This document shows positions 32,764 through 44,167 of a stretch of DNA of 64,000 nt, piece by piece. The stretch's first letter is position 1. Each line of letters opens with the position of its first letter. Position numbers and translations under genes: made by a program. This stretch comes from Candidatus Versatilivorator sp. (GTDB lineage Bacteria; Acidobacteriota; Terriglobia; Versatilivoradales; Versatilivoraceae): the NCBI GenBank assembly GCA_965207735.1, contig OZ242296.1, positions 3,448,782 through 3,512,781 of the forward strand, read 5' to 3'. The notes under the pieces were generated by a model. That model did no database searches. It was not told where the DNA came from and saw nothing but the letters and a program-made list of their open reading frames with translations.

Positions 32764-35700
32764 TCAAAAACTATCTGCAGTTTCTTCCTCGAGTGATCCA
32801 CCCGCCACAGCCCAACCCTCCGACAGCACCTCGGCCTGTTCCAGGACGGTGCGGGTCGCCTTCTCCTGCTTGTCGGGCGGGTAGCCGTGCTTGCGCAGGA
32901 TGCGCTTGACCAGCCGGCGGAGGTTGGCCCGGATGTTCTCGCGCAGCGTCCAGTCGATGGTGACATTGCCCCGCACCGTCTCCACCAGTTCGCGGGCGAT
33001 GTCGCGCAGGGTCTCGTCGCCCAGGACCCGGACGGCGCTGTCGTTTGTCTCGAGGGCGTCGTAGAAGGCCAGTTCCTCTTCCGACAGACCCAGCTCAACG
33101 CCCCGGGCGGCGGCTTCGCGCATCTCTCGGGCAAGCCGGATCAACTCCTCGATCACCTGCGCGGCCTCGATAGCGCGGTTTTGATAGCGGCGAAGAGTCT
33201 GTTCCAGCATCTCTGCGAACGAGCGCGCCTGGACCACATTCTTGCGGCGGCGGGCGGCCAGTTCGCCCTTCAGCAGCTTCTGCAACAGCTCCACGGCCAG
33301 GTTGCGCCGCGGCATCCCCCGCACCTCGGCCAGAAACTCATCGGAGAGGATGGAGATGTCGGGCTTCTTCAGCCCGGCGGCGGCGAAGATGTCGACGACC
33401 CCCTCCGAGGCCACCGCGCGCGAGACGATCTGGCGCACGGCATGGTCCAACTCCTCCTGGGTGCGCACTTGGCGTAACGTGCGCTTGGCCAGCACCGATT
33501 GGACGGCCTGGAAGAAAGCGACGTCGTCGCGAATGCGCAGCGCGTCCTCATGGGGAACGGCGAGAGCAAAGGCCTGGGAGAGCTCGCGAACCGCCCGCAG
33601 GCAGCGCTCCTTGCCGTTGTCCTGGGCCAGGATGTGCTCCTGGGCAGGGGGCAGCAGCCCCAGCCGTTCCGCCGGTGTGCCGGTGGTCCACTTCGACCGG
33701 TCGAACCCGTGGAAAAGACCGAGGCAGACCTCGTATTTCTCCAACATCACCGCCACCGCTTCCGACTGATCGAGGGCTGTCTTGCCGGTGCCGCCGCTCT
33801 CGGTGTAGGTCGCCAGGGCGCGTTTCAGCTCGTGGGCAAGTCCCAGGTAATCCACCACCAGGCCCCCCGGCTTGTCCTTGAACACCCGGTTGACGCGCGC
33901 AATGGCCTGCATCAGCCCGTGGCCCCGCATGGGCTTGTCCAGGTACATCGTGTGCAGGCTGGGGGCGTCGAAGCCGGTCAGCCACATGTCCCGCACCAGT
34001 ACGATCCGGAGCGGGTCGGTAGAATTGCGGAATCTTTTGGCCAGCCTTTCCCGCCTGGGTTTGTTGCGAATATGCGGCTGCCAGTCGAGCGGGTCGGTGG
34101 CGGAACCGGTCATCACCACCTTGAGGCATCCCTTGTCGTCTTCCTCGCGATGCCAATCGGGGCGCAGGCGCACCAGCTCGCGATAGAGGTCGATGCAGAT
34201 GCGCCGGCTCATGCACACGACCATGGCCTTGCCTTCCAGGGCTTCCAGGCGCTGCTCGAAGTGGGCAACGATGTCCCGGGCCACCAGCTTCAGGCGCTGC
34301 TCGGCGCCGACAATGGCCTCCAACTGGGCCCACCTGGTCTTGAGCCTCTCCTTGCGCTCCACCTCCTCGCTCTCGGTGGCCTCCTCGAACCGCGGGTCGA
34401 TGGTCGGCTTCTCCTTCTCGTCCAGGGCCAGCTTGGCGAGGCGGCTCTCGTAGTAGATGGGGACCGTCGCCTTGTCCTGCACCGCGCGCTGGATGTCGTA
34501 GATGCTGATGTAGTCTCCGAAGACGGCGCGGGTGTTGGCGTCCTGCAACTCGATGGGCGTCCCGGTGAAGCCCACGAAGGATGCCCGGGGCAGGGCGTCG
34601 CGCATGTGGCGGGCGAAGCCGTCGATGAAATCGTACTGACTGCGATGGGCTTCGTCGGCAATGACCACGATGTTGCGGCGTTGGGAGAGCGCCGGGAAGG
34701 CATCGCCCTTCCCCTCGGGGAGGAATTTCTGGATGGTGGTGAACACCACCCCTCCGGCAGCCACCGAGAGCCTGCCGCGCAGGTCGGCGCGGCTACCGGC
34801 CTGCGCCGGCGGCTGGCGCAAGAGGTCCCGACAACGGGAGAAGGTGCCGAAGAGCTGGTCATCCAGGTCGTTCCGGTCGGTCAACACCACCACGGTCGGG
34901 TTCTGCATGGCCGGCTCGCGGATGATGCGCCCGGCGTAGAAGGCCATGGTCAGGCTCTTGCCCGAACCCTGGGTGTGCCAGACCACCCCGATGCGACGGT
35001 CGCCGGGGTCGCCGCCGGGCTTGCGGCCGGCCTCGTAGCGCCCGGGCTCATCGCCAATCTGAAGCTCGGCCGCGCGCAAAGTCTCGTCGACTGCCACCTG
35101 CACCGCGTGGAACTGGTGATAGCCGGCCATCTTCTTGACCGGCGCCCCGCCGCCATCGTCCTCGAACACGATGAAGTCGCGGACCAACGGAAGAAATCGC
35201 TCCGGTTGGCAGATGCCTTCCAGCATCACCTGCAGCTCGGTCAGATGCGGGTCGGCCAGCGTCTCCCCGCTGATGGTGCGCCAGGGTTTGAACCACTCCC
35301 GCCCGGCGGTGAGGGTGCCCACCCGGGCCTCGACCCCGTCGGAGACCATGAGCATCTCGTTCATGGCGAACAGCCCGGGGAGCTCCGCCTTGTAAGTCTG
35401 AAGTTGCTGCCAGGCCGTCCAGAGGGTGGCGTCCTCATCCGCCGGGTTCTTGAGCTCGATGATCCCCAGCGGCAGGCCATTGACAAACAGCACCACGTCG
35501 GGCCGGCGATTGTGCTGATTCTCGATAACGGTGAACTGGTTGACCGCCAGCCAATCGTTGCGGGCGGGTTCGTCGAAGTCGATGACCTGCACCTGCGCCC
35601 CGCGAATGGCGCCCTCACCCGCCCGGTGCTCCACCGTCACACCCTCCACCAGCATCCGGTGAAAGGCGCGGTTGCGGGCCTCCAGCATGGCCCCCTCCGG

Positions 35701-35928
35701 TCGGACCAGCTTGCGAAAGGCATCCTCCAGCGCGTCGGAGGGCAAGTGCGGGTTCAACTCGGCCAGGGCATCGCGCAGGCGCTTGGCTAATACCACCTCG
35801 CCGTAATCGGTCCGCTCAGTACTCGGCGTTTCGGGAGCAATGTCAGGACCGTGAGCCACCTGCCATCCGACATTCGCCAGCCACTCGAGGGCGACCTGTT
35901 CGACATCGGATTCGGTGAGGGTGGTCAC
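32764..35928 (-). CDS. hsdR: type I restriction endonuclease subunit R
   Basis: N-terminal [22 protein letters not shown]-box helicase motifs ([17 protein letters not shown]). 1054 aa. Confidence 0.9.
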
Positions 35929-36271
35929 TTGCCTGTTTTTTCAATGAAGGGAATCGGGCGATGGGATCTTCGCTCCGGCACCTCCAGATTGGTGCCGCGC
36001 GGCACGTTCTCTACGAGCCACTGGCCGAGAGGCTTGCGGGGCCGCGTTTTTTCCTCCCACACCCTCGCGGGCACCGCCACGAAGGGCTTCCGGGTACCGA
36101 TGCGCTGCGGCCCCTCTTTCTCGGCCAAGCGCAGGACCTCGGACAGACGGGCCTTGGCCTCGGCGACGGTCCAGACGCGGTTGGGGGCGGTCTTGTTTAC
36201 GGTTACGCTCCTGAGCGGAGAATATGGTCCAGTATTAAAGAGTGAGGAGAGCGATCTTGGACACGGGATCC

Positions 36272-42127: not shown

Positions 42128-42542
42128 CTTCCTCCTCTTCGATCACCTCGGCCAATTCCCTTGCATCGGCGAGAAAGGCTGGCAAGATCTCCAGGGTGGA
42201 TTCGGCAAAGTCTTTGCCGTAATTGTGGGCGGTATCGTTGCGATTGTCGCGGTACTTCAGCCAGCGTTCGCAGGTGTCCAGGTCGATCAGGTCATGCTTG
42301 GCCGCGTGCCGGAACAGATCCTTGAATACAAGGCGGTCCGCTTGGCGGTTGCTGGCGAAATAGGCGCCGAGACGCTTCTTCAGCAACTTGCCGCTCTGCT
42401 CCAGCACAATTTCAAACTCCTTGACGCAGGCCGCGCGATAGATGTCGTAGGTAATGTCATCCGGGTCGCTGCGCTTGAGTTCATTCAAGGCGCGCTCCAA
42501 CGTGTTGAGGCAGCGTCTTAGGAATTCCGTGTTGATGTTCAT
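42120..42542 (-). CDS. hepT: HepT-type nucleotidyltransferase substrate-binding toxin (HI0074 family)
   Basis: HI0074-family helical protein with the RDxxxH-like motif ([12 protein letters not shown]). Nested between hsdM and hsdS. Confidence 0.7.
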
Positions 42543-44167
42543 GATCCCTCACCATCCCCAAAGCCCAACTGCGTCAGGTTTTTCTCAATGGCCGCATCCA
42601 GTCTAACTGCCTCGGCCTGCTGCTTGCGCCACTGGGCGGCGAGACGCTTCATCTTTTCCTCGAACGGCTCGCCGTCGTCTTCCTGCGCTTCCGCCCCGAC
42701 GTAGCGGCCGGGGGTGAGCACATGGCCGTGCTTGCGAACCTCCTCCAGGGTGACGCTCTTGCAGAAGCCCGGAACGTCCTTGTACTCGTCAGCGCCACCC
42801 TCATCCCGTTCCTCCTCCTTCGAGGGAGCGGAAACACGGTTGCGCCAAGCCTGGTAGGTTTCGGCGATGCGGGCAATGTCCTCCTGGGTCAACTCGCGGT
42901 GGGTGCGGTCCACCATGCGGCCGAGCTTCCTTGCATCGATGAACAGGATCTCACCGCTCCGCTCACGTCGGCGCGCCAGAAACCAGAGGCAGGCGGGAAT
43001 CTGGGTGGAGTAGAAGAGTTGGCCCGGCAAAGCGATCATGCAGTCCACCAGGTTGGCTTCGATCAGGGACCGGCGGATGTTCCCCTCGCCCGACTGGCTT
43101 GACGACATGGAGCCGTTGGCGAGCACGAAGCCGGCCGCGCCGGCGGGCGACAGGTGGTGGACCATGTGCTGCACCCAGGCGAAGTTGGCGTTGCCCTTGG
43201 GTGGGACGCCGTATTGCCAGCGCTGGTCCTGGGTGAGCCGCTGGCCGCCCCAGTCGGAGACGTTGAAGGGTGGATTGGCCAGGATGAAGTCGGCCTTGAG
43301 GTCGGGATGGCGGTCGTTGTGGAAGCTGTCGCCGTGGGCGATCTGGCCCTCGATGCCCCGAATGGCCAGGTTCATCTTGGCCAGTCGCCAGGTGGTGTAA
43401 TTGGATTCCTGGCCGTATATGGAGATGTCGCCCCTGGCCTGTCCGCCGTTGCCGTTGCCGCTGGCGTGAGCCCGTATGAATTCCACCGACTGGACGAACA
43501 TGCCGGAGGAACCGCAACAGGGATCGTAAACGCGACCCCGCCAGGGCTCCAGCATCTCCACCAGCAGCTTGACTACGCAGCGGGGGGTGTAGAACTCGCC
43601 GCCCTTCTTGCCCTCGGCGCTGGCGAACTGGGAGAGAAAGTACTCGTAGACACGGCCCAGCACGTCCTTGGATTGGGCTTCCTTGTCTCCCACCCGGATG
43701 TTGCTGACGAGGTCGATGAGTTGGCCCAGTCGCTGCTTGTCGAGGGAGGGGCGGGCGTAGTCCTTAGGCAGCACGTCCTTGAGCACCCGGTTGTCGTGCT
43801 CGATGCCGGCCATGGCGCCGTCGACGAGCTGGCCGATGGTAGACTGGCGGGCTTGGGACTTCAGATTCGCCCAGCGTGCCTCCGGCGGCACCCAAAAGAT
43901 ATTCTCGGCGATGTACTCGTCACGGTCCTCGGCGGCCTCGCTGCCCCATTCGGCCACAACCGCCGCATGGCGCTCTTCGAAGGCGTCGGAGATGTACTTC
44001 AGAAAGACGAGGCCCAAGACGACGTGCTTGTACTCGGCGGCGTCCATGTTGCCGCGCAAGGCGTCCGCCATCTTCCAAAGCTGGGCCTCGTAGCCCGTGA
44101 TGGCGCCGTCGCCCCCGGGCTTTGCGTCTGTCTTGGAGGCTGTTTTCCCCGATTGTGCGCTTGCCAT
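42539..44167 (-). CDS. hsdM: type I restriction-modification DNA methyltransferase subunit M
   Basis: HsdM N-terminal domain ([23 protein letters not shown]). N6-MTase motifs ([14 protein letters not shown]). Confidence 0.9.

Follow-up and report, generated by a model that had tools for sequence, protein, structure and literature searches.

The window analysed here, a 64,000-nt stretch of contig OZ242296.1 (assembly GCA_965207735.1, Candidatus Versatilivorator sp.), contains a chromosomal type I restriction-modification (R-M) operon of an uncultured Acidobacteriota (Terriglobia-like) bacterium in which an insertion sequence (IS) of the IS1634 family separates the restriction gene hsdR from the remainder of the operon. 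All operon genes are located on the minus strand and are arranged in the order hsdM, an HI0074-type HEPN gene, a small nucleotidyltransferase gene, hsdS, a DUF4238 gene, a DUF2806 gene, the IS1634-family IS and hsdR (Table 1). Gene identities were assigned from the listing of open reading frames (ORFs) and from profile searches with Pfam, NCBIfam and PADLOC (v2.0.0), which bear out the gene order that had been read from the letters alone in the original prediction. From hsdM to hsdS, neighbouring genes overlap or are almost contiguous (gaps of -4, -8 and +3 nt), and the two genes that follow hsdS, here termed cargo, are spaced by 51 and 142 nt. The PADLOC Specificity_I match to HsdS spans residues 1-439 of 449 and covers two target recognition domains (TRDs), and HsdR presents the N-terminal nuclease domain, the SF2 motor and the C-terminal domain according to Pfam. 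A reduced GC content of the cargo had also been noted and is confirmed, with 0.51 over positions 38371-41015 versus 0.66 for hsdR and 0.64 for hsdM.

Table 1. Features of the R-M operon and its surroundings, with positions in the window unless a related locus is named.
Feature	Position	Strand	Evidence or remark
Phd antitoxin (45654-45400) and PIN toxin (45403-45005)	45005-45654	-	further upstream of hsdM; 94% identical to L084 and L085
HigB-like toxin (44964-44683) and HTH_3 HigA-like antitoxin (44662-44372)	44372-44964	-	directly upstream of hsdM
hsdM, type I methyltransferase subunit, 542 aa	42539-44167	-	Pfam N6_Mtase PF02384 5e-108, HsdM_N PF12161; PADLOC MTase_I 1e-214
HI0074-family nucleotidyltransferase substrate-binding protein, HEPN-like, 140 aa	42120-42542	-	PF08780 2.6e-19; TIGR01987 56.9 bits vs cut-off 55.8
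Minimal nucleotidyltransferase (MNT), 106 aa	41807-42127	-	Polbeta, NTP_transf_2
hsdS, specificity subunit, 449 aa	40454-41803	-	PADLOC Specificity_I 7.6e-85, full-length
DUF4238 protein, 281 aa, cargo gene 1	39557-40402	-	PF14022 1.8e-25, 90.4 bits vs cut-off 27, profile positions 2-279/281
DUF2806/TIGR03899-like protein, 347 aa, cargo gene 2	38371-39414	-	PF10987 4.2e-34, 118.8 bits
Target-site duplication CTAA, upstream copy	38367-38370	-	immediately 3' of the DUF2806 TGA stop
IS1634-family IS, 2084 bp	36283-38366	-	inverted repeats at 38366-38354 and 36283-36295
IS1634-family DDE transposase ORF	38247-36391	-	NF033559 283.9 bits, cut-off 100; runner-up model IS1380 31.7
Promoter-like site TTGTAA-17-TATACT in the right end of the IS, 22 bp inside, facing the relic and hsdR	36305-36333	-	sole minus-strand match between the transposase gene and hsdR
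Target-site duplication CTAA, downstream copy	36279-36282	-	
Phd/YefM-like antitoxin relic, about 93 codons	35925-36206	-	TIGR01552 E=2.9e-4, 20.1 bits, just under cut-off 20.8
hsdR, restriction subunit, 1054 aa, intact	32764-35928	-	PADLOC REase_I 1095 bits; HSDR_N, SWI2_SNF2, T1R_D3-like, T1RH-like_C
MazE-like antitoxin (31760-32029) and PIN_3 toxin (32007-32438)	31760-32438	+	convergent with hsdR
Extra phd/hsdR-5' copies in related operons	L001 8135-8275; L002 7832-7981; L085 9045-9403; L025 10001-10169; L037 7103-7246; also L014		

The IS is delimited by perfect terminal inverted repeats of 13 bp (CCCATCTTTAACA) and by a CTAA duplication, and its right end lies 354 bp from the GTG start codon of hsdR. 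The insertion is real and is accompanied by a 4-bp target duplication, since the IS-free relative L085 displays the empty site ...CTACATGA-CTAA-TATCACCGG... with a single CTAA, and since three other copies of the IS, located in other contexts on metagenome contigs (L081-L083, 91-97% identity; L082 96.6%), terminate at the identical base and continue with TTAG, TTAG and CCAA. On both sides of the site, L085 is 87-91% identical to the window and collinear to the base. A same-orientation IS1634-family element between the cargo-laden operon and hsdR had been proposed in the original prediction and agrees with the NF033559 match, the inverted repeats and the duplication. The proposed distance to hsdR of about 340 bp was nearly correct, and the suggested comparison with strains lacking the IS is provided by the exact empty site of L085; the placement between DUF2806 and hsdR stands, and only the boundaries given at the time (36272-38365) have to be replaced by those in Table 1. 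The same IS (88.9% nucleotide identity, full length, opposite orientation) also interrupts hsdS of a homologous operon (L087/L086, 1522-3604), again at a CTAA target with duplication and with the corresponding empty site in L088 (about 2637-3150), and this insertion is independent of the one in the window. An IS relative with 67% amino acid identity in L044 is flanked by CTAG at both ends, and the duplications at these three insertions (CTAA, CTAA and CTAG) conform to a YYAR-like target. The motif TGTAGTGCCA is found near both ends of the IS (about 38262-38271 and about 36350-36359) in the same orientation, is conserved in the L044 relative and may serve as a subterminal transposase-binding site. 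In the L086/L087 operon, hsdS and DUF2806 are additionally separated by a DDE_3 (IS630-like) element.

The interval between the IS and hsdR contains a Phd/YefM-like ORF that had been overlooked in the original prediction of this interval. Its TGA stop codon overlaps the hsdR start (GTGA), and the related Phd-like ORFs score 19 in comparison to a Pfam cut-off of 29.8. Judged by its homologues, this ORF is the relic of a toxin-antitoxin module, because an intact Phd antitoxin and a 139-aa PIN toxin, whose stop codon overlaps hsdR, occupy the same position in L010, L025 and L077, and because a 51-bp toxin remnant persists between the Phd-like stop codon and hsdR in L084 (9403-9453) and L085b (L085, about 11950-12000). 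This remnant encodes MTGYRLDTNVE..., a VapC/PIN-like N-terminus, and a deletion between two ATGACC starts seems to have removed the PIN toxin gene in L084/L085, while the window, L001, L002 and L087/L088 have lost the toxin from this position altogether. Decay of the ORF is also evident in other genomes, with a frameshift in L085a and an in-frame stop codon in L085b, and its ratio of nonsynonymous to synonymous substitution rates (dN/dS) is 0.24-0.56. The relic start codon is changed to GTA in the window only, as opposed to ATG or GTG in all seven relatives, and the start codon of hsdR is GTG in the window only and ATG in all relatives; these two changes are among the ten private substitutions of the window in approximately 380 bp. 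A further private substitution (C>T at 36128) converts CTG into an in-frame TTG of the relic that is preceded by GAGG 8 nt upstream and could permit a 67-aa truncated product ending on the hsdR start. Two other interpretations of this interval were considered and rejected. A function of the orphan Phd-like protein as a controller-protein-like repressor of hsdR is not favoured in view of the decay of the ORF in several genomes, its dN/dS and the PIN remnant in L084/L085b. Decay of a promoter in the window after arrival of the IS, as suggested by the gap of about 22 bp upstream of the Phd-like ORF, was discarded because the IS-free loci L084 and L085a have the same short spacer.

On the evidence of its substitution pattern, hsdR itself is intact and under purifying selection. 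Its dN/dS of 0.13-0.14 against L001 and L002 equals the value between L001 and L002, and only one conservative private change is found at the 487 HsdR columns that are at least 95% conserved, compared to a median of six in 78 homologues. A sigma-70 consensus scan of the minus strand detected no promoter-like site between the IS and hsdR and no terminator-like site from the transposase stop codon to hsdR. Upstream of phd, L002 and L010, which have a longer spacer, present a TATAGT-type promoter-like site together with a palindrome. The short spacer is common to the window and the IS-free L084 and L085a, and a promoter-like site is equally absent from this spacer in the IS-free L085. Because an IS-free relative with the same short spacer also lacks such a site, hsdR appears to have relied on transcription from upstream, and it was probably co-transcribed with the cargo in this sub-lineage, a unit that the IS would now interrupt.

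These observations can be arranged into a sequence of events. After arrival of the low-GC block, the IS1634-family element inserted at CTAA directly behind the DUF2806 stop codon, and since hsdR shows no sign of decay, this event is presumably recent. HsdM, HsdS and the cargo would still be expressed from upstream, and methylation and the cargo defences would therefore be unaffected. hsdR, which in this sub-lineage is likely devoid of a promoter of its own, would now depend for its transcription entirely on polymerase reading through the IS or starting at the promoter-like site in the IS end. Together with the loss of the relic start codon and the GTG start of hsdR, this altered transcription would most likely reduce, and not abolish, the level of HsdR. 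Overall, there is about an even chance that hsdR is still transcribed in one of these two ways and at a changed, probably lower level. Polar silencing of hsdR or its expression through IS read-through had been proposed in the original prediction, and an effect of this kind is plausible. Several considerations weigh against this interpretation. The scan is a simple consensus match that may not describe the promoters of Acidobacteriota, and the 76-bp spacer or the Phd-like relic could harbour a genuine promoter. Among copies of the element, the -10 hexamer of the IS-borne promoter-like site is not conserved and reads TATGCT or CATACT elsewhere. The occurrence of two out of ten private substitutions at start codons is a post hoc observation, the in-frame TTG at 36128 with its GAGG could restore translational coupling to hsdR, and an intact hsdR fits unchanged expression equally well.

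A rival interpretation is a neutral insertion, in which hsdR expression is essentially unchanged owing to read-through, an outward promoter of the IS or an undetected native promoter, and the R-M system is fully active. This possibility is in agreement with a minus strand free of terminator-like sites from the transposase stop codon onwards to hsdR, with the promoter-like sequence located 22 bp inside the IS end and with purifying selection on an intact hsdR, and the private TTG with the upstream GAGG could keep translational coupling in place. It is nevertheless regarded as possible but rather unlikely. Since the phd start codon is lost, the approximately 460 nt from the transposase stop codon to hsdR are probably untranslated, a situation that would invite Rho-dependent polarity, and the hsdR start has been weakened to GTG in this genome only. 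In addition, the -10 hexamer of the outward site varies among the IS copies.

The opposite outcome, full polar silencing, would leave hsdR unexpressed and convert the locus into a modification-only system with cargo defences. Decay of the R-M system would thereby have begun, comparable to the sister genome in which the same IS has broken hsdS. The lack of a native promoter-like site upstream of hsdR, the lost start codon of the upstream ORF and the weaker hsdR start are consistent with this outcome, as are the recurrent IS hits in homologous operons, with the same IS in hsdS and the IS630-like element in L086/L087. However, hsdR contains neither frameshifts nor premature stop codons, its single conservative private change lies below the median of the homologues, and no terminator is predicted in the IS. 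As hsdR is intact and has accumulated so few private changes, silencing would have to be very recent, and it is considered unlikely.

The wider history of the operon was assessed with a census of 71 related operons from many phyla, in which the slot between hsdS and hsdR was counted as filled if it comprised at least 0.5 kb. This slot is filled in 65 of the 71 operons, and an occupied slot is the rule in this R-M clade. The 150 cargo ORFs include AAA_21/AAA_15 (10), Abi_C (10), 8xMP (9), ThsB-TIR (7), SIR2 (7), Fic (7), RhuM (6), Schlafen (5), PIN (4) and DUF2806 (3), and HerA was also observed. A nucleotidyltransferase gene is located between hsdM and hsdS in about half of the loci. The clade that includes the operon of the window is widely transferred, and its members normally have passengers in two slots, an HI0074-type HEPN plus MNT pair between hsdM and hsdS and variable defence cargo between hsdS and hsdR. 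Among the closest relatives, the Terriglobia chromosome L002 is syntenic with the window and approximately 90% identical downstream of hsdR. Homology to L001 stops inside hsdS at position 41015 and restarts at 36231, and L001 and L002 carry SIR2-HerA, DUF6978 and DUF1828 in place of the block present in the window. Because of these breakpoints, the exchanged low-GC block is defined as the TRD2 half of hsdS (the 3' half, up to 41015) together with DUF4238 and DUF2806, which arrived together. Upstream of the real hsdR, several related operons contain extra partial copies of the junction between the phd 3' end and the hsdR 5' end, or of the first 31-56 hsdR codons, that flank the last cargo module (Table 1) and have the appearance of scars left by cassettes that recombined into the 5' end of hsdR. 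A more far-reaching proposal holds that the operon of this clade acts as a recombination scaffold, which swaps the TRD2 half of hsdS and the defence cargo as one cassette between conserved anchors in the centre of hsdS and at the phd/hsdR 5' junction, leaves duplicated scars behind and, once specificity has been swapped, is tuned by changes that lower HsdR, such as the IS at the right edge of the cassette and the altered start codons. This proposal is doubtful and is put forward with considerable reserve; if it were true, a single exchange would replace DNA-recognition specificity and accessory immunity at the same time.

DUF4238 and DUF2806 had been described in the original prediction as uncharacterised passengers of R-M and defence islands, a statement that does not hold, as each family has a member tested against phages. 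Strong protection against T7 is conferred by one DUF4238 protein encoded in a P2-like prophage hotspot (Rousset et al. 2022, PMC9122126), and the DUF2806 integron cassette 'Belisama' was reported as an anti-phage system (bioRxiv 10.1101/2024.07.02.601686). The defence-system profile scan that had been suggested for both proteins returned nothing for them: at E<=0.001, no PADLOC family matched DUF4238, DUF2806 or the HI0074-like protein, and PADLOC v2.0.0 may hold no DUF4238 model. Look-ups by exact sequence returned no record for the DUF2806 protein, the transposase or P0121. AlphaFold models of the two cargo proteins reach a predicted local distance difference test (pLDDT) score of 92.7 for DUF4238 and 74.3 for DUF2806, and a Foldseek search detected no fold match in the PDB for either model. 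Close homologues of both cargo genes are found together beside hsdS in L084 and L085, and DUF2806 recurs beside hsdS in L025, L033, L060 and L086-88. Stand-alone homologues, with neither R-M genes nor the other cargo gene, are present in L089-L091 (DUF2806) and L092-L094 (DUF4238). These DUF2806 homologues are more distant and are located among housekeeping genes or beside an Mrr-like gene, and the DUF4238 homologues have 66, 48 and 36% identity, with no R-M genes nearby. Because homologues of each are also found singly in places other than R-M operons, the two genes are, according to this distribution, independent single-gene modules, and neither is tied to the other or to the R-M enzyme as an obligatory partner. 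In L092 (5399-9033), a lone DUF4238 gene and several small ORFs are situated between 157-aa and 68-aa Peptidase_A8 (lspA) fragments, an arrangement suggestive of a small island that has entered lspA.

The position of the cargo could also be taken to mean that DUF4238 and DUF2806 are guardians of the R-M system that detect when the type I enzyme is being inhibited, similar to PrrC of EcoprrI, a type Ic R-M system with an embedded anticodon nuclease (PMC12707154, PMC3710099); uncoupling of hsdR would then alter their activation. The slot between hsdS and hsdR is indeed the one used by PrrC, the pair recurs jointly in L084 and L085, and DUF2806 is repeatedly found beside hsdS. This role is improbable, given that homologues of each protein exist without R-M genes or partner, that the tested DUF4238 and DUF2806 systems act as single genes and that neither protein contains an ABC-ATPase or a HEPN anticodon-nuclease domain according to Pfam. 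Moreover, where the two genes co-occur, the pairs are closely related (75-92% identity), and their joint occurrence is for this reason ascribed to descent of one cassette. Finally, a misplacement of the IS by repeat mis-assembly, for which the probable origin of the sequence from a metagenome-assembled genome (MAG), the tendency of IS copies to break or mis-join assemblies and the start of contig L082 exactly at the IS end could be cited, has a negligible probability in the face of the perfect CTAA duplication around perfect inverted repeats, the base-for-base collinear empty site of L085 and the same target with duplication at the independent L087 insertion.

Between hsdM and hsdS, the HEPN-like gene overlaps the hsdM stop codon by 4 nt and the MNT gene by 8 nt, and the MNT gene ends 3 nt before hsdS. 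The HEPN-like protein contains an Rx4H motif (RNDTAH, at residue 101), and the MNT presents the GSx10DxD motif (GSRVSGRSHEGSDLD). The pairing of a HEPN protein with a nucleotidyltransferase had been recognized in the original prediction, and this part stands; the labels hepT and mntA were not upheld. The HEPN-like protein yielded no match to DUF86 (HepT) and is instead recognized by PF08780/TIGR01987, and the MNT reached 28.5 bits with the MntA model NF047752 (cut-off 60) and is matched only by generic nucleotidyltransferase domains. By these profile assignments, the pair is of the HI0073/HI0074 HEPN/MNT type and not of the MntA/HepT type VII. In L084 (5297-6937), L010 (4473-6122) and L025 (7123-8781), the nucleotidyltransferase forms the N-terminal part of a fusion protein with HsdS of 546-552 aa, and the nucleotidyltransferase of the window also matches the first approximately 96 positions of the PADLOC Specificity_I model PDLC03138 (E=1.2e-9). 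These fusions and this match suggest that the MNT domain and HsdS are closely linked in function.

The operon is surrounded by further toxin-antitoxin genes on both sides (Table 1). The HigB-like gene upstream of hsdM (44683-44964) is absent from L001, L084 and L085 owing to an indel of about 290 bp, and the HTH_3 antitoxin-like gene is kept there. Just downstream of hsdR, window positions 32098-32797 and L002 positions 13132-13704 are non-homologous: the window contains most of the PIN_3 gene and L002 a repeat resembling a miniature inverted-repeat transposable element (MITE). Two MITE-like copies of about 225 bp are located elsewhere in the window (19090-19301 and 50425-50649), with terminal inverted repeats of 29-37 bp that are 97% complementary, and ORFs overlapping the MITE-like element gave no Pfam match. 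In L001 and L002, related copies follow shortly after hsdR, and L085 contains several in a tandem-like arrangement (15226-17044); none is present at that site of the window.

In comparison to known systems, the mobile element agrees with the IS1634 family in its single ORF scoring far above the NF033559 cut-off, in inverted repeats starting with C and in its multiple copies in different contexts. Target duplications in this family are typically 5-6 bp long, and the 4-bp duplication in the window is shorter than this. The relic between the IS and hsdR differs from functional Phd/YefM antitoxins paired with PIN/VapC toxins in its GTA start codon and in the lack of an adjacent toxin gene, which is still present in L010, L025 and L077. 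The nucleotidyltransferase and its HEPN-like partner share the small size of the nucleotidyltransferase, the Rx4H motif of the partner and the overlapping genes with the HI0073/HI0074 and MntA/HepT pairs. They are distinguished from type VII MntA/HepT systems by the HI0074/PF08780 type of the HEPN protein, with no DUF86, and by the sub-threshold MntA score, and from HEPN/MNT pairs in general by the frequent fusion of the nucleotidyltransferase to HsdS in relatives of the window (L084, L010, L025). An association of HEPN proteins with R-M systems is documented (PMC3710099).

For the cargo, Rst_DUF4238 represents the same Pfam family, matched nearly over its full length at 90 bits, and is also a single gene with homologues that are found alone in islands. 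The gene of the window is likened to this E. coli protein by Pfam family alone and resides in an R-M operon of an Acidobacteriota MAG instead of a prophage hotspot. Belisama shares the family DUF2806 and the single-gene organization, again a likeness by family alone, and the similarity to Abi-alpha reported for it was not recovered for the DUF2806 protein of the window (Pfam at E<=1; Foldseek against the PDB). The overall layout resembles PrrC/EcoprrI and RloC, in which a defence gene lodged between hsdS and hsdR of a type I R-M operon provides layered defence. Apart from the domain differences described above, PrrC is almost exclusively embedded, whereas homologues of the cargo studied here are also found outside R-M operons. 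The closest parallels are TgvAB in the type I R-M cluster of Vibrio cholerae VPI-2 (PMC11411939) and the 'guilt-by-embedding' survey (Payne et al. 2024, bioRxiv 10.1101/2024.01.29.577857), which describes embedding in type I R-M clusters as frequent and varied. Both report independent defence genes inside type I R-M clusters, as is the case for most operons of the present census; here, other cargo families are involved, the exchanged block includes the TRD2 half of hsdS and an IS separates hsdR. The arrangement as such is already well documented, and the IS between cargo and hsdR is real but fairly ordinary. Since embedded cargo is the rule in this clade, searches for new defence genes could usefully be directed at the hsdS-hsdR slot of uncultured Acidobacteriota, Chloroflexota and Gemmatimonadota, an observation that extends the published embedding idea and opens no new one. 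The locus adds a base-resolved IS insertion in a cargo-carrying type I R-M operon with the empty site at hand for comparison, and could serve as a natural test of the dependence of hsdR expression on operon continuity.

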